24,507 nt of DNA. Source: a virus. Lineage: Duplodnaviria > Caudoviricetes. Position 1 is the first letter of the stretch; each line of letters starts with the position of its first letter. Positions 11,530-24,382 of the stretch are shown here, one piece after another. Below the pieces are notes generated by a model. That model had not been told where the DNA came from. It was given only the letters and a program-made list of their open reading frames with translations, and made no database searches. The position numbers were made by a program, and so were the translations under genes. The DNA is taken from positions 1 to 24,507 of the IMG/VR virus record IMGVR_UViG_3300006802_000538; one strand, written 5' to 3'.

Positions 11530-13623
11530 CTAATCGTTTTCGGCTTCAATACTGAAACCATCCCCAGAGTAGATCACGTTGGAAGACGGGGCTATCCCAG
11601 TTTCGGATGAAGGCCCTTGGCTCCCTACAGCAGGGGGAATACGCGGATTAAACACCGCAGGGTCTATCCCTTTTGATCTCAAATGGGCGTCAATCATTCC
11701 GTTAATCTTCGGGGGATCCCACGGTTCATCATAGGCATTCATTCGATTGATAAACGCCCCTTCGTAGGCTCCTCTTACCACGTTATTTACATTGGACAAG
11801 ATAACCCTTGGGTCACCACTTCCGGCACCCACCGACATAAGCGCCTGCTCCATGTCCTTGTTACTAAACTCCGCAGTAATTTTTCCTCCTCGCTGTGCTT
11901 TTGCAACGGCATAGGCAAGAGCGAGAAGACCTGTTCTCATGTTGTTTGACGTGATATTTGCCTCGTCAAAAACGGCATAGTTATTGGGATTAAAGATGTC
12001 GTTGATTTTTTCTGCCCCGCTATCCCCTCCAAATTTTCCACCAAGCGCCGATAGTTCTGTGCCAAACTCACCCAAAGCCCCTGCAATCCTGTTGACAGAG
12101 GTCGCTGAATCTGGGTTCTCGGTTATGCTTTGGGCCACCCTTAGTGCGGGCATTAAGATCTGGTCTGCGGCATCAATTTTTACTTCGGAATCTTCTTTTC
12201 TTTCCTCAGTGTCCGGAACCATGGACGGATTGATCTTCATGCCTGTGATGTTGGCCGGAGCCGGGGTCCCGTCTAGGAAAAACAACCTTCCGTCTTGTTC
12301 AACTCCTGACCCCACCACCCTGCGTTTATTGATGTCATAAAGAGTAATGGAATTTGGGCTACTCTTATTCTTTGACGCCGTTGGGAGTTCAACTACCTGT
12401 TCGCCTTCTCCCAAAACATACGGCTTTCCTGAGCGTAAATCCACCAAGGAAGTAGAGACCCCATCTTCGTTTATAACCCTTTCCACATTTGCTAGGATAT
12501 TCCCCCTACTGTCTTGGATAGAGAACATTCCCAGTGGTTTAGTTGCTGTCGATCTATCCTTTAGCGCACTTGCCGTAAGTTCGCCCTCTAGTTTCCTGTT
12601 TATGACTTCGTCAGAAATAGCCTGTTGCAGGGCCGCGAGCCGTGCTTCTTGGCCCATGGAATTTATCCGTCCTGCCGACTTTACGGCCAACGAAGGGACA
12701 TCACCAAAGGCCCCTGCAGCACGTGAGGCAAAGGAGCCGCTCAAGGGGTTTCCTCTGGCATCTTGGTTCGCGGCAAACGCAAAACTTCTTCGCGAGATAT
12801 CCGCCAGCAGGGCCGCCCGTTCTAGTTCTTTGTCTCGCTTTAGGTCTTGCCCCAAGGCGGAAGAAAACAGCCTCTCGTACGCCTTCGCATTACTTTCAAC
12901 GGCATTAGAATCAAGGGGGCGGATTAAAGATGAAAACGGGTTAGCTTTTTTTTTAGCTTCCCCGCCCGCCGCATAACGGGCATAACTTACCTCTCCCCCG
13001 TCAGCCATGTTTAGCGGTGGAAGCGCTCCTCCCGGGGGCATTCCTCCCGGGGGCATTCCTCCCGGGGGCATTCCTCCCGGGGGCATTGCGGGGGGCTGAA
13101 CCCCAGCCGTTACGCCCGCTCCCTGAAGCTGCTGCCCAAGGTCCGCTAGGCCTCCCCCGGCGGGAGAGGGCGGTGCACCAGCGCCCGATGGCGGGAGGGG
13201 GGGAGGAGTAGCCCCACCGGGCGCTGGGCCCGCGTTCTGTTGGCCGGGAACGCTTGCGATTCCCTGCCCGAGTTTGGATTGAAGAAGAGTAAGCACTTCT
13301 TCGGGAGTTTCCATGGCGGCTTCTTCGCCTACGAGATCTGCCAATTCCTTACGGCGAGCGTCAGGAGAGCGCATGTCTCCACGCAGGGTATTCATGAGGA
13401 TTTCTGGAGAGCGCGGCGTGCGCCCGATCATCTTGCCGGATTCCCCCTCCTCGTCGTCGTCTTCGCGTTCTAGTGCATCATCGTCTTCTTCCGGCATTCC
13501 ATTTTTTGACAGAGCTTCCATAAGGGACTCGTGCATAGAGTCCTTGAAGCCGTCCATGATGCCCACGTTCTCAATGTCCATGCCTTTACGGAACATTTTT
13601 CGATTAAGCACTTTTGATTTCAT
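11530..13623 (-). CDS. Putative internal virion/ejection protein (697 aa) with acidic and Pro/Gly-rich leader
   Basis: SD AGGT upstream. D/E-rich N-terminus, Pro/Gly linker, MADGG and YAAGG motifs, then a helical body. Confidence 0.65.
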   Translation of the reverse strand: MKSKVLNRKMFRKGMDIENVGIMDGFKDSMHESLMEALSKNGMPEEDDDALEREDDDEEGESGKMIGRTPRSPEILMNTLRGDMRSPDARRKELADLVGEEAAMETPEEVLTLLQSKLGQGIASVPGQQNAGPAPGGATPPPLPPSGAGAPPSPAGGGLADLGQQLQGAGVTAGVQPPAMPPGGMPPGGMPPGGMPPGGALPPLNMADGGEVSYARYAAGGEAKKKANPFSSLIRPLDSNAVESNAKAYERLFSSALGQDLKRDKELERAALLADISRRSFAFAANQDARGNPLSGSFASRAAGAFGDVPSLAVKSAGRINSMGQEARLAALQQAISDEVINRKLEGELTASALKDRSTATKPLGMFSIQDSRGNILANVERVINEDGVSTSLVDLRSGKPYVLGEGEQVVELPTASKNKSSPNSITLYDINKRRVVGSGVEQDGRLFFLDGTPAPANITGMKINPSMVPDTEERKEDSEVKIDAADQILMPALRVAQSITENPDSATSVNRIAGALGEFGTELSALGGKFGGDSGAEKINDIFNPNNYAVFDEANITSNNMRTGLLALAYAVAKAQRGGKITAEFSNKDMEQALMSVGAGSGDPRVILSNVNNVVRGAYEGAFINRMNAYDEPWDPPKINGMIDAHLRSKGIDPAVFNPRIPPAVGSQGPSSETGIAPSSNVIYSGDGFSIEAEND
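13028..13087. repeat. Perfect 15-bp tandem repeat x4 encoding (MPPGG)4
   Basis: CCTCCCGGGGGCATT at 13028, 13043, 13058 and 13073. Confidence 0.95.
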
Positions 13624-13632
13624 AGCTATACC

Positions 13633-16600
13633 TTAGATGATTCCGGCTCTGCTAGCAGCCCCTGCGCCTGTAAGAACGCCCGCTCCAATCCCCGCTATGG
13701 TCTGCAGGGGAGAAGTTGATGGGGCAGTTGTTGCCGACATAGACATTTGTGTAGAAGGAACGCGAGAGACGACGTCAGACAAGAAAGCAACGTCGTTACG
13801 CTCCTGCATAGCATTTTGAAGAGAGGTTGCTCTGGCCGCATCAAGTTGCGCTTGTGCATTTTGCTGCTGGCCCACGCCCATGTTGTAAAGCATGGAAACG
13901 TCGGACTGTTCAAGCTGCTGCTGCGCTTGCCCAAGCGCGGCTTGCTGGACGCCCATTGACGCCATTTGTTGGCCAAGACTTCCAAGCCCTTGTCCTTTGG
14001 CCAAGGTCGCTTCTGCTTGCTGCCCAGCAATACTTCCAAGCCCTTGTCCAAGCTGCCCGTACAACTGCCCCTTCTGAAGGTCGAACTGCCCCGAACCAAG
14101 GCTCAACTGCCCCTGCTGCGCTCCTATCTGCCCAAGGGCCTGTCCGACTGCAGCCATGTTCTGCACTCCCTGCTGACCAAGCTGAGTCTGCTGAAGCTCC
14201 TGTTGCCCAAGCACGTTTCCTGCATTTACAAGCTGCTGGCCCCTTTGAATACCAAGCTGTGCCTCTTGGGTTTCCATGTTGGCAAGATTCTGTGCCTGCT
14301 GGTTGTATATATTCGCACTTTGGGCGGCGAGATCTCCGTACAGCATGCCAGCCTGCGCTTCTTGCGAGGACATTCCGGCAAGCGCCTGAGCAGCCTGTTG
14401 GCCAAGTTGGGTCTGCTGAATTTGCTGCTGACCAAGAGTTTGGCCAGCGGCAACGAGCTGCTGTGCGCGCTGCAATTCTGCCTGAAGTTCTCTGGACTGA
14501 GTGTCCGTCAGCAAACCCGCCTGCTGTGCCTGCATCTGCCCCTGTACCTGAGCAATCTGTGCCGGCGTATACCCAGCCTGAACCATGTTTTGGTAGATAT
14601 TTGCCTCAAGGCCTGTGGCCGCCTGACCGAGCTGCGCCTGCTGAACAGCCTGTTGCCCCATAGCCTGCCCAGACTGCGTGATCTGCTGTGCCCTCTGCAA
14701 TTCTGTCTGGAGTTCGCGAGTTTGCGCGTCGGTAAGTAGTCCCGCACGCTGCGCTTGTATCTGGCTTTGGATTTGAGCGATCTGCGCGGGAGCATACCCA
14801 GCCTGAACAAGGTTCTGGTAGATAGCCGCCTCGGATGTTTCGGCCTGCTGCCCCAACTGCGCTTGCTGAAGCTCCTGTTGCCCCATCTGAGTTCCGATAT
14901 TTGCCAGCTGCTGCGCTTGGGCAAGTTCCGCCTGCGCCTGCGCGGACTGCAGTGCTCCTGCCTGCGTACCAAGCTGCCCCTGAAGCGCGGCTTCTTGTGC
15001 AATGGCGGCGGCACTACGCTGCCCAATTTCGCTCTGCGAAAGACCGAGATTACCCAGAAGGTTTCCTTGCCCCAGCTGACGCTGTTGCTGTTGCTCAAAT
15101 CCTGCCATTGCGGCCTGTTGCGCCTGCCCATAGTTTTGAGCGTAATCCTGCAGAATCTTTTGCTGCATCTGGTCTTGGATGTTTCGCTCAAATTCCGCTC
15201 GCTGAACGCCTTCGCGAGTCCCTCCAAAGGCCCCCGCCCGCACTGCCTGCGCGGCCATATCCTGCCTTGCGATGTTCGCCTGACGACGCATTTCCTGCAT
15301 CGCCTTTTGTGTCACCGCCTGTTGATAGGGGTTCATAAACTCCTGAGCAGCTTCTGGCGAATATGCTTCAGCGCCCTGCAAAAGTCCCTCAATCCCTAGA
15401 TTGATAGTTCTAGCTGCCTGTTTCTGGGCGGGAAGAGCTGCCTCAGCAACGTTCGAGGCGTTTTGAAGGCCTGCACGAACGGCCTTATTCGCCGTTCCCA
15501 TGTCAACATCAGCGCCCCTTGCCTGCTGTGCAGCCTGTCCGAGAAACGCCTGAGAACGCCCTAAATCCGCCTGAGAATACTGCCCTATATCTCGCGCAGA
15601 AGAGGTCATTCCACTGACCCCTTTTTGAATCGTCCCTATACCGCTATCTGCGGCATCAGCATAAGTTCCAAGTTGGTTAGCTACTGCTCTAGACGCGGCA
15701 AAATTAGGGTCTACGCTACTCGCAGCAGAAAGTCCTTGACGCAACGCAGCATCGCTTGCTGCTAGGTCTGCTCCAGAATACTGGCTAGCTTTCATCGCAG
15801 CTTGCCCCATTCCAGCAGTTCCCTTGGCTACTGTATCAAGCCCGTTGTCTGCAGCGTTGATAAACTGCCCTATTCCACTTGCCGCCGCGTTGGCGGCGGA
15901 AAAGTTCGGATCTATCGCCGTTGCTGAACCAATTCCGGCATTGATCGCGGTCTGACTAGGGGCTAGATTCGCCTGCGTGAATCCCCCAATCAATGCCTGA
16001 GCGGAATTAAGCCCAGCAATCCCTCCCGCAATCCCGGTCTCGCCTTTTGTTGCGGTGGCAACGGTATTGCCTAGGTTGTTGGTCGCGGTGACTGCATTGG
16101 TATAGTCAGGAGTCGCCGCTGTAAGAGCAGATGTCCCAGTGCCAATAGTGGTTTGGGCATTTGCAAGATTTGCCGCAAGGTAGTCGTCAGCCCGGCCTCC
16201 CGCGTCTTTTGCGTATCCCGCTCCTGCGTCCAAATACCCCAGCGCGTTTGTTAGACTCGGAGTAGAAGCGGCTCCTGCTGCCGTTAGCCCAGACGTATAG
16301 GCCCCCTGTGCACCGGAGTATAAGGTAGACAAATTAAGGTCGCTGAGGGCTTGTTTACCTAACTCAGCATAATCAACGCCGGAGCCTATTGTGGTGTCGG
16401 CGTCAGCTAGGTAGTCCTCCCACCCTGAAATTCCATCCCCTTTTAGCGTGTAGATGGCAGGAGATGTTTTTGTAGCCGGCGTGATGTCGTATCCGGTATA
16501 CCCGAGATCTTTTAGTAGATTTGTTTCTGCAAATTTCTGGAAAGGTGAAAGACCTGCGGCTTGGTAAGCAGGAAGTTCTAGTGTTTTTGCAATCTCGTCT

Positions 16601-16683
16601 TGAGCCGATTTAATTACAGCGGCGCGCTGCGCCTCTACTTCTGGCGCTTCTCGTACGATCTGGGTGGTAACGGTATCAACCAT
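13633..16683 (-). CDS. Putative DNA transfer/ejection channel protein, Gln/Ala/Gly-rich (1016 aa)
   Basis: N-terminal TTQIVREAPEVE, central FMNPYQ...AGAFGGTR motif recalled from podovirus ejection proteins, hydrophobic Gly-rich C-terminus IAGIGAGVLTGAGA. SD GAGG; 8-bp overlap with the upstream gene. Confidence 0.75.
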   Translation of the reverse strand: MVDTVTTQIVREAPEVEAQRAAVIKSAQDEIAKTLELPAYQAAGLSPFQKFAETNLLKDLGYTGYDITPATKTSPAIYTLKGDGISGWEDYLADADTTIGSGVDYAELGKQALSDLNLSTLYSGAQGAYTSGLTAAGAASTPSLTNALGYLDAGAGYAKDAGGRADDYLAANLANAQTTIGTGTSALTAATPDYTNAVTATNNLGNTVATATKGETGIAGGIAGLNSAQALIGGFTQANLAPSQTAINAGIGSATAIDPNFSAANAAASGIGQFINAADNGLDTVAKGTAGMGQAAMKASQYSGADLAASDAALRQGLSAASSVDPNFAASRAVANQLGTYADAADSGIGTIQKGVSGMTSSARDIGQYSQADLGRSQAFLGQAAQQARGADVDMGTANKAVRAGLQNASNVAEAALPAQKQAARTINLGIEGLLQGAEAYSPEAAQEFMNPYQQAVTQKAMQEMRRQANIARQDMAAQAVRAGAFGGTREGVQRAEFERNIQDQMQQKILQDYAQNYGQAQQAAMAGFEQQQQRQLGQGNLLGNLGLSQSEIGQRSAAAIAQEAALQGQLGTQAGALQSAQAQAELAQAQQLANIGTQMGQQELQQAQLGQQAETSEAAIYQNLVQAGYAPAQIAQIQSQIQAQRAGLLTDAQTRELQTELQRAQQITQSGQAMGQQAVQQAQLGQAATGLEANIYQNMVQAGYTPAQIAQVQGQMQAQQAGLLTDTQSRELQAELQRAQQLVAAGQTLGQQQIQQTQLGQQAAQALAGMSSQEAQAGMLYGDLAAQSANIYNQQAQNLANMETQEAQLGIQRGQQLVNAGNVLGQQELQQTQLGQQGVQNMAAVGQALGQIGAQQGQLSLGSGQFDLQKGQLYGQLGQGLGSIAGQQAEATLAKGQGLGSLGQQMASMGVQQAALGQAQQQLEQSDVSMLYNMGVGQQQNAQAQLDAARATSLQNAMQERNDVAFLSDVVSRVPSTQMSMSATTAPSTSPLQTIAGIGAGVLTGAGAASRAGII
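14242..14916 (-). repeat. Three 75-aa protein repeats (aa 590-814) plus partial fourth
   Basis: Units begin AQQLANIG, AQQITQSG, AQQLVAAG and GQQLVNAG at an exact 75-aa spacing. Confidence 0.9.
15580..16182 (-). repeat. Three 67-aa protein repeats (aa 168-368) plus partial fourth
   Basis: Units begin YLAANL, FTQANL, YSGADL and YSQADL at an exact 67-aa spacing, with shared (D)P(N/D)(F/Y) and G..G(L/M) positions. Confidence 0.85.
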
Positions 16684-18592
16684 TGGAGTTGCCCTCTAAT
16701 GCTTTCATTAAAGCATACATGCGTTTTGCACCGTTTCTGCGAGAGCCTTCGCCCGCTCCTCGTACTGCTTTGGCTGTAAACACGAACTCCCCGTCCGATA
16801 GCATCGCCGGGATGGAATCAGAAGTTCCAGTTCCGGGGCCGTTAATGGGTCCTGTCTTTCTTGGAAAATGATTTATCTCTCCACCAGAGGCGGCAGCTAC
16901 GACCGCTGGCGCTGCCGCCATTTGGTTGGGAGTCAAGCCTGACGTAACGAGGTCGTAAGCATTAGGATCTGTCGACAGGTTTGGGTAGGCGTAGGGGTCT
17001 TTTGTGATGTAAGCGGTATCCGCCCCACCAAGTTTGAAAGCCCATTTTTCTGGGTCTTCCTCAAGGAGCTGGTATCCCGTTTTTCCGGCATACCTTTGAT
17101 CAATCATTCCCTTGAATTCAGGGGGAACTTCTACCTCCGGAGTATCAAAAGCGCCAAGCGCATACGCTGCCCCAAGTCCTGCGGCTGTGATAGGACCGTA
17201 TGTCCGTAGAATACCCGGGGTCGCGGCCTTGAACGCTTCCATTGCCGCCGACTTACTTCCGGTTTCCAAAAGGGTGGTGTTGTAAGCCTCTTTTGCACTA
17301 GCCATCCCGGCTTCCTTAATTCCTCCGGGCATGATGTTTTGATTGACCCAGTCCCCCGCTTTTGAGAAAAACGACGGCTCTGCCGCCGCAGTAGCAGGAG
17401 AGGTGTACGCGTTTACATCTGCGGGAGTAAACACGTCTTTGGCCGCTGACAGCTCCCCAGTGGCGACATCCGAAGGTTTCATCGGAACCGTATCAAGCGT
17501 AACGGCCTCTTTTCCAGCCTCAATGCCCGCTGTTTTTGCGTTGCTAAGAGTTTCAATGCCCCCCGCTGCTCCTGTTGCACCCGCTGTTTTTGCAGTGGCG
17601 GCAGCAGCGGCTTCTTTGTATGAGGTCGGAGTTAGCCCAAAAACCTTGGCACCAATGCCCGCCGTTGCGCCGGTTATAAGCCCAGTTTTAAGCGCGTCTC
17701 CAAACTTTTGCCCGCTTGCCATACCAACAAGAGTGCTTGCGGCCATCGTGTTCACGGCAAGAGCAAGATTAGGCATTGCCGCAAGCCCCAAAGACCCTGC
17801 GAGACCTGCCCCAAACGGGCCGGCAGGCCCGAGTAAAAAAGTTGCCCCAACCGTCAGAACCGCCCTCCCAATAGGATTGGACGCTACCGACTTGACGACG
17901 TTGACAACGCCTTTAACAAGGCCAGTAACGGCTTTAGCTACCCCACTAAAGATGTTTCCAACGGCCTTGAAAATACTTTTCAAAAAGAATTCTGGGAGCC
18001 CTGTGATGGGGTTTATAGTTCCGCTGCCCCCGTTTCGACGTAGAAGACGTGCTTCTGAGGGGGTGATGTGGGCAAGCATCGTGTCCTGCTTGCGTCCTTG
18101 CGCTGCAACAGCGGCGGCAAGAGGCTTAAGGGTTGCCAGTCCGCCTTCCGCAAAATTCATGGAGGGGATCTCTGGCCGCTGCGACATTTTTTCGGAAAGT
18201 TCGTCCAAAACGATGTTCATCGCAGCAAAAAAAGCAGGATCAAACCTTTCCGGAAGAATGTCGGGCGGAACCCCCTCGTCAATAAACCCCTGTCGGTTTT
18301 CTTCGTAGTTCTCCGGCTCGCTTACGAGAGCATCTATCATTTTGCCCAAGGCATCGATGACTTCTTCTGGGAGGGCTACTCTTTCCAGTACTGCACGGAG
18401 CTGGGCGACAAGACGAGGGTCTGCCTTTTCGATGGTTTCTATCAGATCTTTTCCGAAGCGTTGTGGGTCTTCTGCAGCATACTCTCGCACGGCAGACTCG
18501 AATTGCTGCATCTCTTCTGGAGAAACTTCGGGGACGCTCGGGGCCATGGAAGAATCCATGTTCTCCCCTAAAGACATGATACCTTCAGCCAT
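16676..18592 (-). CDS. Putative internal virion/pilot protein (638 aa) with two tape-measure-like AxGG modules and a membrane-active segment
   Basis: FAEGG...DTMLAHITPSE...GGSGTINPITGLPEF; amphipathic helix and Gly-rich hydrophobic stretch; C-terminal ASGG...GPGTGTSDSIPAMLSDGEFVFT. Confidence 0.75.
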   Translation of the reverse strand: MAEGIMSLGENMDSSMAPSVPEVSPEEMQQFESAVREYAAEDPQRFGKDLIETIEKADPRLVAQLRAVLERVALPEEVIDALGKMIDALVSEPENYEENRQGFIDEGVPPDILPERFDPAFFAAMNIVLDELSEKMSQRPEIPSMNFAEGGLATLKPLAAAVAAQGRKQDTMLAHITPSEARLLRRNGGSGTINPITGLPEFFLKSIFKAVGNIFSGVAKAVTGLVKGVVNVVKSVASNPIGRAVLTVGATFLLGPAGPFGAGLAGSLGLAAMPNLALAVNTMAASTLVGMASGQKFGDALKTGLITGATAGIGAKVFGLTPTSYKEAAAAATAKTAGATGAAGGIETLSNAKTAGIEAGKEAVTLDTVPMKPSDVATGELSAAKDVFTPADVNAYTSPATAAAEPSFFSKAGDWVNQNIMPGGIKEAGMASAKEAYNTTLLETGSKSAAMEAFKAATPGILRTYGPITAAGLGAAYALGAFDTPEVEVPPEFKGMIDQRYAGKTGYQLLEEDPEKWAFKLGGADTAYITKDPYAYPNLSTDPNAYDLVTSGLTPNQMAAAPAVVAAASGGEINHFPRKTGPINGPGTGTSDSIPAMLSDGEFVFTAKAVRGAGEGSRRNGAKRMYALMKALEGNSNG

Positions 18593-21577: not shown

Positions 21578-24382
21578 TTAGGCCGCCACTGCCTTGATAA
21601 CCGCGAAATTAAACACCGGCTGCTCTGTCGTCGTTCCGCCAGTTGTAGCAAATGAGATACGAAAAGATCCAGCGGCAACGTTCGTGACGTGCATCATATA
21701 CAGGTCAGTCCCAGACTTTTGGTTCACGATCACCACGTCCGTCGCAGCCACTGTGCTATTGGTCACCGTAAAGCTCTGCCATGTCGCCGTGCCTGCCGCA
21801 GAGACCAGCGTAATCGCGCCGTTCGTCTTGTTCAGCGTGACACCTGTCGTTCTGCTGGTGGCCTGAGTAACTGCGCCACCCGTCCCAGTCCCATAACCAA
21901 GGCCCGCAGTATCCTTGGTCATCGTGAAGCCGGTATCGGCAACTCGACAGATTTCGGCGACAGTCGCCGCGTTAGCCGCAGCACCAAACCGAATCGTACC
22001 ACCGCCGTCTACACCCGCCGAGGACGAAAGGATGTAAGCGCCAACCGCCGCGTTAGTGGCGTCTGAATTGTAAAACTCAATTTTACCAATCGGCTGATTG
22101 GCGGCAGACGTGGTGTCGGTATCAGTGAATCGAAGGGTGTTTACCGGGGTATCCGAAGCCGCTCCCTGATTACTCCCCGCAAGATCCAGTAGCTTTTGGG
22201 GGTCAACAAAAGTATTACCAATTCCAACATACCCGTTAGAATCAATACTTACTCTTGTCGTTGGGTTTGTCCCTGCCGCTGCCGTGGTAGCAAAAAGTAT
22301 TTTCCCGGGAACAGAACCATCAGCAACGGTTCCATCGCATCGCGCAGTAATTCTAGCGGCGGGAGCGAATTCGGAACTAGTAGAATTTCCGTCAGCCCCG
22401 CACCAGAGGATGTCTCCAAGATTGGTGCCAGAGGCTACAGCCGTGTAAGACCCCGCCGTTGCATTACTGCTTCGACTAAAATTTATGATATTTGCAAAAG
22501 TAGTGTTTGTAGACCATGTAAATAGACCAAAACTACCCTGTGTGCTGCCCGCAGTATGTCCTTGAATTCCCGGTGTATACACGGCGGAACTAATCCCAAC
22601 CGTAGAAACAGCGGAGGTGTAGCCTTTGACTAAATTTCCAGACGCGTCAACTACGAAAGGCGTCGCGTCAGGATTGGTGCTGTCTTCGACTAACAGCGCG
22701 TTACCCGTGCCAAGCTGCGTGACGCGCAGAGCAGCATTAGTGTTGTCGGTGACGCTGATTACTGTGCTACCGCCGAAGTAGTTCGGTGCACTGCCTGCGG
22801 CGTAAAAACCGTAGCGACTAGTTCCAGAAGCGCCTAGGTTAGTGTAAAAAGCGTAATTAGTAGTCGCGTCGGTAAGGCTGTTTCCAACTATAAATCCATA
22901 TTGATTATCTACAGTAGCGCTAGTTCCTTTCGCTATACCATAAGTAAGATAAGCATAATAAGCCTCTAATGCAGTAGAGGCTGAGGTGCTGGGGTTTGCA
23001 TTATAAGAAACATGTGTTGATCCTATCCCGGATACAGCGGAAGAAAGAGTTACTGTATCTTCAAAGGTGATTCTATAACTTGCCCCAGTAGGCCCAGTGT
23101 CTGCCCCGTCAACTCGTACCGCTGTAGGACTGGATGAATTAAAATTAAACCTAGCGGATGTCGCGGAAGTATTTCCAATCTGTGTATTGTCAAGGGTTCC
23201 GCCTGTAATTGCCGGAGTTGTGATCGTCGGACTCGTCGCAAATACAAGTGCTCCGCTGCCCGTCTCATTGGTAACCGCTGCAGCAAGGTTTGCAGAAGAG
23301 GGGGTTGCTAAAAACGTCGCGATCCCTGTTCCCAGTCCAGAAATGCCGGAGGAAACAGGCAGCCCCGTGCAGTTCGTCAGCGTTCCAGAAGTAGGCGTTC
23401 CAAGAACAGGGGTGACAAGAGTCGGACTCGTTGCAAAAACAAGCGCTCCACTGCCCGTCTCATCAGTAACCGCCGCAGCAAGGTTTGCGGAAGAGGGAGT
23501 TGCCAAAAACGTTGCGACCCCAGTTCCTAATCCAGAAATTCCGGAGGAAACGGGAAGCCCCGTGCAGTTCGTCAGCGTTCCAGAAGTAGGCGTTCCAAGA
23601 ACAGGGGTGACAAGAGTCGGACTCGTTGCAAATACAAGCGCTCCACTGCCCGTCTCATCAGTAACCGCCGCAGCAAGGTTTGCGGAAGAGGGAGTTGCCA
23701 AAAACGTTGCGACCCCGGTTCCTAATCCAGAAATTCCGGAGGAAACGGGAAGCCCCGTGCAGTTCGTCAGCGTTCCAGAAGTAGGCGTGCCGAGGACAGG
23801 AGTAACAAGAGTTGGGCTGGTGGCCAAAACGTTGTTGCCAGTGCCTGTATTGGTAACGCTGGCCACATTCTTGTTCGCATCAAGCGCAAGCGCCGTGCTG
23901 GCAGTCAGCGAAGATACCGAAAGATTCCCTACCTGCAGGTTTTCTAGCACATTGTAGATGTAAGACGTGCTACCGCCCCCAGAACAACGCACAACGATGT
24001 CTTTCCCGTTCGGGATCTCGTAGTCACGAGCAGCGTCATACGTCCCTTGGAACAGCAAAATACTGCGGCTTCCCGAAAGCCCGTTCCGAATAAAGTAATA
24101 CCCCTCAAAATCATTTGGGGTAATCTGGACGTAGGTCGTGCCTCCAAGGTCTCCCGCGTCCACGAATTCAACAATCCTGTTCCGCCCGTTAGACGCTGCA
24201 AAATCCGCAACATTGAGCGTGTTCGGAGAACCAGAACTACCCGCAGAAGCAAGCGTAACGCTGACATAACCAACAATGGCCGTGTCAAAATAATCAAAAT
24301 TGGTATTGGTCGAATCGCCCCACGTGCCGGATTCGTCGCCCGTGGTGATTTGCTTGATGCCAAGATTCGTATATGTAGCCAT
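21578..24382 (-). CDS. Tail fibre / receptor-binding protein (934 aa)
   Basis: Thr/Ser/Gly/Ala-rich; N-terminal anchor TGDESGTWGDSTNTN, 65-aa shaft repeats, knuckle motifs (RVSIDSNGYVGIG) and C-terminal VTQATSRTTGVTLNK...FNFAVIKA domain. SD AGGAG. Confidence 0.85.
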   Translation of the reverse strand: MATYTNLGIKQITTGDESGTWGDSTNTNFDYFDTAIVGYVSVTLASAGSSGSPNTLNVADFAASNGRNRIVEFVDAGDLGGTTYVQITPNDFEGYYFIRNGLSGSRSILLFQGTYDAARDYEIPNGKDIVVRCSGGGSTSYIYNVLENLQVGNLSVSSLTASTALALDANKNVASVTNTGTGNNVLATSPTLVTPVLGTPTSGTLTNCTGLPVSSGISGLGTGVATFLATPSSANLAAAVTDETGSGALVFATSPTLVTPVLGTPTSGTLTNCTGLPVSSGISGLGTGVATFLATPSSANLAAAVTDETGSGALVFATSPTLVTPVLGTPTSGTLTNCTGLPVSSGISGLGTGIATFLATPSSANLAAAVTNETGSGALVFATSPTITTPAITGGTLDNTQIGNTSATSARFNFNSSSPTAVRVDGADTGPTGASYRITFEDTVTLSSAVSGIGSTHVSYNANPSTSASTALEAYYAYLTYGIAKGTSATVDNQYGFIVGNSLTDATTNYAFYTNLGASGTSRYGFYAAGSAPNYFGGSTVISVTDNTNAALRVTQLGTGNALLVEDSTNPDATPFVVDASGNLVKGYTSAVSTVGISSAVYTPGIQGHTAGSTQGSFGLFTWSTNTTFANIINFSRSSNATAGSYTAVASGTNLGDILWCGADGNSTSSEFAPAARITARCDGTVADGSVPGKILFATTAAAGTNPTTRVSIDSNGYVGIGNTFVDPQKLLDLAGSNQGAASDTPVNTLRFTDTDTTSAANQPIGKIEFYNSDATNAAVGAYILSSSAGVDGGGTIRFGAAANAATVAEICRVADTGFTMTKDTAGLGYGTGTGGAVTQATSRTTGVTLNKTNGAITLVSAAGTATWQSFTVTNSTVAATDVVIVNQKSGTDLYMMHVTNVAAGSFRISFATTGGTTTEQPVFNFAVIKAVAA
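23240..23824. repeat. Three tandem 195-bp (65-aa) repeats in the tail fibre
   Basis: ATSPTLVTPVLGTPTSGTLTNCTGLPVSSGISGLGTGVATFLATPSSANLAAAVTDETGSGALVF x3; units at 23240-23434, 23435-23629 and 23630-23824. Confidence 0.97.

Follow-up and report, generated by a model that had tools for sequence, protein, structure and literature searches.

A small acidic module shared by an ejection-region protein and phage tape measure proteins, and its possible role in self-processing

The 24,507-nucleotide stretch of viral DNA analyzed here (the window; positions 1 to 24,507 of the Caudoviricetes record IMGVR_UViG_3300006802_000538 in IMG/VR) carries genes for DNA polymerase A, UvrD and SNF2 helicases, a primase, and a nuclease on its left side and virion genes on its right. 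Among the latter is P0001, a 638-amino-acid (aa) virion/ejection-region protein encoded on the minus strand (16676..18592) and orthologous to WJZ48115.1 of phage DSL-LC04. That phage is the closest annotated record and has a gene order identical to that of the window: a stabilization protein, two small genes, the P0001 orthologue, and three ejection-type genes. A 294-aa neighbor of the DSL-LC04 orthologue matches phrog_4287 ("DNA ejection protein"); its start and a G-A-F-G-G motif are common to a 1016-aa open reading frame (ORF) of the window, which itself found no match in a PHROG search. Judging from gene content, the source is probably a short-tailed phage and P0001 one of its ejected proteins. 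The annotation of WJZ48115.1 as a "tail tape measure protein" is probably a mis-annotation caused by the C-terminal module described below. P0001 fails as a whole-length tape measure protein (TMP): its TMP profile matches are confined to aa 557-616, and the DSL-LC04 orthologue lies beside the stabilization protein and ejection-type genes rather than the tail tube and chaperone neighbors expected for a TMP.

P0001 contains two segments, M1 and M2, each built around an Asp and a Glu ten residues apart (D-x9-E) and each preceded by an AxGG motif; a preliminary description of the sequence proposed that they form a duplicated self-processing module. All features are on the minus strand. A conserved acidic N-terminal domain (aa 1-135; 18188..18592), missing from many orthologues whose sequences begin at M1 or close to it, is followed by FAEGG (aa 147-151; 18140..18154), an AxGG site at variable distance from M1 where a cut between F147 and A148 is predicted by analogy with phage T5. 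M1 (aa 164-202; 17987..18103) is a short-form leader with the pattern G-R-x-G-D ... A-H ... P-x-E ... N-P-x-T-G-x-x-E-[FY]; its core, D170 to E180 (18053..18085), contains H175, and release is predicted after F202. Then comes the start of a passenger (aa 203-320; 17633..17986), a basic amphipathic helix that leads into a hydrophobic stretch rich in Gly and Ala. M2 (aa 568-634; 16691..16891), which is common to TMPs, begins with its AxGG arm, ASGG (aa 568-571; 16880..16891), with a predicted cut at A567/A568, and has its core at D592 to E602 (16787..16819).

Both segments and both AxGG motifs lie where they had been placed, with exactly 19 aa from G151 to D170 and 21 aa from G571 to D592. Two copies of the proposed D-x9-E pattern occur in the protein, and 20,000 shuffles yielded two copies 0 times and one copy 4 times, a significance that is overstated because the pattern is post hoc. 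M1 and M2 are the most strongly conserved blocks of P0001. Among the best 120 of its 4,204 homologues (the query included), D170, E180, D592, and E602 are all 100% conserved, as are H175, E201, D600, G150-G151, and G571. The pairing of Asp with Glu is therefore near-invariant in this set and falls short of universal, as the lambda and short M1 sequences below show. H175 has no conserved counterpart in M2. The spacing in M1 is H-x4-E, M2 has no His, and the H-x-x-E spacing of M14 zinc ligands occurs in neither. The two copies do flank an amphipathic and then hydrophobic passenger, as claimed; the membrane activity ascribed to it is presumed. The N-terminal domain aside, the hydrophobic moment of P0001 is greatest at residues 203-220, and only one acidic residue occurs in aa 203-320; no 19-residue Kyte-Doolittle window over P0001 exceeds 1.33.

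Pfam and NCBIfam contain no family for M1 or M2. Shallow profiles of the two gave no significant match (0.17% profile probability, E 0.35) and were superseded by deeper sets, with which the direct match is still weak (11%, E 0.0027, 0/25 shuffles). A long form of M1 connects them. First seen at locus L052, it reads D-x4-H-x3-G-E-x-V-x-P, continues through helices, and finishes with the M1-type end N-P-x-T-G-x-x-E-F; it occupies the place of M1 in orthologues whose C-terminal module is still M2 (L158, L159, L167, and L174). In a sample of 195 distinct complete ORFs, shaped by the queries used, 79 combine the long form with M2 and 77 the short form with M2. Short M1, which is without the G-E-x-V-x-P stretch and about 27 residues, matches the long form with 99.3% profile probability (E 1.7e-20). 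The long form in turn matches M2 at 26% (E 7e-4, 0/25 column shuffles) with a first set of six non-redundant long sequences found from M1 alone, and at 87% (E 3.9e-6; score 30 against a shuffle maximum of 15.7; 0/30) with an enlarged set of 41 sequences gathered in part with a G-E-containing pattern. All profile alignments place D170 on D592 and E180 on E602, so the register of the preliminary description was right. M1 and M2 are, as far as sequence can tell, diverged copies of one small acidic module, related in the D-x9-E register by way of the long form.

M2 had been likened to the C-terminal region of lambda-type TMPs, and the searches bear this out. Seven of the eight PHROG matches of P0001 span aa 557-616, six of those seven being TMP families; aa 568-634 match TMP modules by profile; and an M2 profile built without lambda sequences matches lambda gpH (E 2.6e-6). 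A tblastn search with M2 matched 710 of 50,697 phage records. Of 60 rows taken from across the ranking, most carry a TMP annotation and belong to phages of Gordonia, Mycobacterium, Pseudomonas, Arthrobacter, Burkholderia, and Vibrio. Copy number varies in 117 long M2 proteins (one copy in 67, two in 30, three in 12, and four in 8), so that 50 have two to four copies; the modules lie mid-chain between cargo blocks. The Ala of AxGG is exactly 14 residues ahead of the Asp in 110 of 148 non-redundant M2 copies, with no AxGG in 12, and a second AxGG follows within 60 residues downstream in 96 of 131 internal copies. AxGG appears, then, to be part of M2. The distance in the window's M2 is 24 rather than 14, the same as in other C-terminal ejection-protein copies.

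Two further genes carry M2 sequences. One is gp72 of Pelagibacter phage HTVC115P (L054:6293-7300; 335 aa), which contains AxGG four times, has an M2 core near-identical to that of the window, and lies between the portal and the genes preceding the capsid. This region is a frequent place of the prohead protease. A 378-aa gene (L048:4402-5535) has a divergent C-terminal M2, D-T-M-L-A-Q-L-A-D-G-E, intermediate between M1 and M2, and an internal I-N-P-V-T-G.

A related arrangement is found in T5. A GE-x-GPE module, searched as G-E-x-G-P/T-E-x-V-x-P, was matched 71 times in 123 loci, 48 of the matches having their AxGG exactly 14 residues upstream, and residues 1123-1168 of T5 pb2 match its profile (E 1e-6). 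In the pb2 sequence R1127 is the residue directly ahead of A-E-G-G. The single mapped TMP cut, after R1127 of pb2 (PMC10038345), falls exactly before AxGG, in agreement with the proposal of cleavage at this motif in a TMP. For the metallopeptidase motif that follows the cut, the pb2 record lists InterPro IPR000834; a zinc carboxypeptidase (M14) reading was rejected, as His occurs at the corresponding place in 0/71 GE-x-GPE modules and Pfam gave no M14 match in P0001.

The C-terminal region of lambda gpH (TIGR01541) contains an M2-type module at 734-782, consisting of F-A-T-G-G, the module, and Y-A-T-G-G, with E755 kept. A cut at F733/A734 is predicted and would give products of 79.8 and 12.5 kDa; published estimates for gpH* and gpHC are about 78 and 14 kDa, and the site and catalyst are stated to be unknown in the 2025 paper that gives them (PMC12617516). 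The M2 profile also matches residues 1016-1088 of the JBD30 TMP, with D and E present.

M1 behaves differently. It matches 2,443 of 1.84 billion representative proteins (50% clustering), along with only four phage records, none a true TMP; it is frequently at the protein start and is present twice in 35 of 143 representative proteins. From the first residue past E-[FY] the sequences are unrelated. In Venkman gp46 and at L048, M1 is attached instead to a phrog_4287 protein and ends where that family starts: in gp46, M1 ends at Y56 and the ejection family begins at residue 59 (profile position 5), with K-G-G-G next. M1 is missing from 152 of 153 other phrog_4287-type ORFs in the examined loci. 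One P0001 orthologue (L130) begins with the amphipathic helix itself, and another (L133) has an AxGG-like Y-G-I-G-G where M1 would be. M1 thus ends at the point where module-less relatives begin. The proposal that both copies act at AxGG is not supported for M1: 49 of the 71 short copies and 40 of the 42 long ones have no AxGG in the 45 aa upstream of them, and in the others the distance ranges from 14 to 39. M1 appears to be a portable leader ending at E-[FY] and not a partner of AxGG. H175 and E180 tend to be lost together (both present in 61 of 80 copies, neither in 11, only one in 8; Fisher P 3e-8, kinship ignored), and R167 and E201 covary fully (both in 67, neither in 13), which suggests that the C-terminal strand of M1 likely folds back on the D/H/E face.

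It is possible, although we put the chance somewhat below even, that the module cuts its own polypeptide during virion assembly and is in effect a self-processing cassette, which would account for the long-unexplained shortening of the ruler proteins in lambda and T5. M2 would hold the AxGG strand and cut ahead of its Ala, at A567/A568 in P0001; it would act in cis and perhaps in trans, at F147/A148 or at sites in a neighboring module-less 697-aa ORF, whose MADGG and YAAGG motifs (aa 206-221; 12961..13008, minus strand) are candidates. In M1 the AxGG arm would be exchanged for the leader's own C-terminal N-P-x-T-G-x-x-E-[FY] strand, and the leader would likely be cut off after F202. The amphipathic middle would then be freed at both ends as a 36.5-kDa passenger with a free amphipathic N-terminus. 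The conserved Glu (E180 and E602) is the likely catalytic or metal-binding group, aided by the Asp and in M1 perhaps also by H175; since the module comprises just 40-65 residues, the active site would likely be completed in an oligomer. A broader version of this scheme, which we regard as rather unlikely to hold in full, makes the module a minimal Glu/Asp self-cleaving domain with which long-tailed phages trim or subdivide TMPs at X/AxGG and short-tailed phages release ejection proteins, in an AxGG-armed form and a leader form cutting after E-[FY]; it would be the missing catalyst of gpH and pb2 maturation.

A number of observations weigh against self-processing. Among proteins with M1 or M2, cleavage has been observed for lambda gpH alone, at an unmapped site; gpH has Tyr at the Asp position and lacks the Asp, and its authors modeled gpH* at 691-730 residues, just short of the predicted 733 (PMC12617516). 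Glu is missing from 17 of 71 short M1 copies. The counts for 160 distinct M2 copies (Glu in all, Asp in 157, the remaining three being gaps) are inflated, as are those for the long form, by search patterns and a query that contained these residues. The link to T5 is weak: the M2 profile misses the T5 module, the GE-x-GPE profile misses P0001, and the two profiles match at 26% over 12 columns, in the AxGG arm alone. AlphaFold monomer models of M2 (103-sequence alignment) and of long-form M1 from L403 (65 sequences) are mediocre (mean predicted local distance difference test (pLDDT) 72.5 and 72.9; predicted template modeling scores 0.49 and 0.51), with low confidence in the AxGG arm of M2 (pLDDT 46-58) and the C-terminal strand of the long form (50-61). 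Both have an irregular D-to-E segment without strands, a short helix starting five residues past the Glu, and then a long helix, with no structural cross-match between them. The M2 model, the only one searched in this way and mediocre, had 0 matches at Z >= 2 among 48,161 PDB chains; a BFVD fold search left both models without a match at E <= 0.001, and TMPs were not among the entries retrieved with the long form. BFVD entry A0A516MFJ4, matched by both, was not counted as a shared fold, as it probably carries both modules. Sequence comparison of the long form with the PDB reached only unrelated proteins (best E 0.02), and no fold or profile match was found to the aspartic and glutamic autoproteases retropepsin, Rhs core, S74, and G2, a weak test given the mediocre models. 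A likeness of N-P-x-T-G-L to the Rhs cleavage motif was dropped for want of profile support.

Some proteins that lack a module also contain AxGG, which would call for action in trans or for another reader of the motif. The motif [FYM]AxGG occurs 123 times in 107 P0001 homologues against 15.3 expected, and 34 times in 48 non-redundant homologues of the module-less 697-aa neighbor against 3.1 expected (top of 36 permuted patterns), counts that come from related homologues rather than independent events; homologues of the stabilization protein show no enrichment (2 in 70 against 3.5 expected). In DSL-LC04, [FYM]AxGG is present in several module-less head-region proteins, with M1 and M2 solely in the P0001 orthologue (69 of 85 proteins examined). 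This distribution is what would be seen if a separate phage or host protease used the same cut sites and the module merely presented or bound the AxGG strand, or sorted the protein into head or tail, an explanation we hold to be somewhat unlikely. Candidates are an HslV-family peptidase of DSL-LC04 (L648:21530-21982; phrog_1040, E 1.8e-27), lambda gpK, which is annotated as a C40 peptidase, and the host protease OpdA, which removes the leader of P22 gp7 (PMC8402733), a precedent for an outside enzyme that likewise tells against self-processing. The HslV-like peptidase was rejected as a universal cutter because its distribution, over 78 phage records (mostly Salmonella, Klebsiella, and Escherichia phages, none named for Pelagibacter, Pseudomonas, Gordonia, or Mycobacterium), does not track M2. 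The residue ahead of AxGG is variable (F, Y, K, A, L, R, H, or M) while the AxGG side is fixed; this variability, and the presence of M2 in both actinobacterial and proteobacterial phages, argues against one host protease. A pure tag would need no near-invariant acids at a fixed distance. An apparent depletion of [FYM]AxGG in the phrog_4287-type neighbor (1 seen, 8.3 expected from its AxGG count) was set aside because 67 of the 100 AxGG there follow Gly, mostly within a single conserved motif, and two further permutations give counts just as low.

A structural role is also to be considered. The module might serve as a hook or oligomerization knob and hold ruler and ejection proteins in place within the virion, with AxGG as a tight-packing strand and the podovirus-type protein left uncut. 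The corresponding part of the JBD30 TMP (1022-1066) is predicted to be such a hook, with two helices and a short hairpin, and no peptidase motif is reported for it (PMC11445458); T5 and lambda have the only TMPs known to be cut in particles (PMC12617516), and the fold searches returned no catalytic fold. Against this, the T5 cut falls precisely before AxGG, up to four modules per protein lie mid-chain between cargo blocks, and the end of M1 coincides exactly with natural N-termini, which makes a purely structural role unlikely. In a more limited variant, M2 processes and short M1 is a decayed, non-catalytic leader or targeting sequence retaining part of the old core, having given up the G-E-x-V-x-P stretch and the residues that accompany it in the long form. 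Asp is retained in 69 of 71 short copies and His and Glu are lost in one fifth to one quarter. However, Glu is present in 108 of 108 single-copy proteins, a count biased by the higher score demanded of single-copy matches, and is lost from both copies in only 1 of 35 two-copy proteins; decay of M1 seems to us quite improbable.

Other observations concern neighboring and related genes. Large proteins with three to five [FYM]-[AK]-x-GG motifs lie between terminase and portal genes (L648:10344-12821, L045:5770-11196, and L050:1407-5195), and very small Lys/Met-rich ORFs with x-x-G-G motifs lie near head genes (L648:1315-2218, L648:7313-7918, and L054:6150-6287); the latter are possible internal DNA-binding peptides. 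The 1016-aa protein of the window (13633-16683, minus strand) is Gln/Ala/Gly-rich with long internal repeats, and since its DSL-LC04 counterpart has 294 aa, its length varies widely in relatives. A 934-aa tail-fiber-like protein (21578-24382, minus strand) contains a near-perfect repeat of about 74 aa three times, and WJZ48115.1 (L001:16132-18411) has about six tandem 19-aa repeats. The long P0001 relatives P0226, P0306, P0315, and P0340 have precomputed matches to Pfam PF07591 (plus PF14890 in P0315), which we take to be HINT/intein-type domains, another self-processing unit.

In the literature searched, which did not extend to subscription papers and supplements (Linares fig. S5G; JBD30 Appendix S8), no description of the module and no AxGG cleavage motif was found, and the accessible portions of PMC10461980, PMC2248197, and PMC7824862 contain nothing on it. 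Cleavage of TMPs, phage domains that cut themselves, and the removal of leaders are already known in kind; the bridge between M1 and M2, the leader behavior of M1, and the predicted gpH cut are new. If self-processing is correct, ruler and ejection proteins are modular polyproteins carrying built-in cutters. For lambda the prediction names a testable bond (F733/A734) and residue (E755) in a laboratory phage, so a 50-year-old question could be addressed by single substitutions.

Compared with P0001, lambda gpH is alike in its M2-type module, flanking AxGG, and Glu, and unlike in lacking an Asp at the D592 position and in belonging to a long-tailed phage. Phage phi29 gp12, which is said to undergo Glu autocleavage, and the S74 chaperone domain would resemble the module in releasing part of a virion protein in a single turnover; their residues are different, and the module is far smaller. 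S74 uses Ser/Lys (PMC7824862). P22 gp7 offers a parallel to the proposed fate of M1: this ejection protein loses an N-terminal leader whose last residue is Glu, which exposes K-G-G; its mature start, Lys-Gly-Gly-Lys-Gly (PMC8402733), recalls the K-G-G-G past M1 in Venkman gp46. It differs in having a 20-residue leader without a D/H/E module (no alignment test was applied), in the use of a host enzyme, and in family (PHROG 598 versus 4287). T5 pb2 is like the M2 proteins in having an acidic module at a fixed distance after AxGG, and its cut lies directly before that motif; its module is of the GE-x-GPE type, only weakly linked to M2, and its His is found in none of the 71 other such modules. 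The "metallopeptidase motif" after the pb2 cut is said to be muralytic, and in the accessible text self-cleavage is not proposed (PMC10038345). The JBD30 hook corresponds to the same domain as M2 and was interpreted as an anchor when published; the cut suggested there, speculatively, follows R1066 and is not ahead of AxGG (PMC11445458). The T5 "carboxypeptidase motif" and the JBD30 "hook" would be recast as versions of one module, and these TMP modules linked to the ejection proteins of very abundant aquatic phages, as represented by the 2,443 M1-type proteins.

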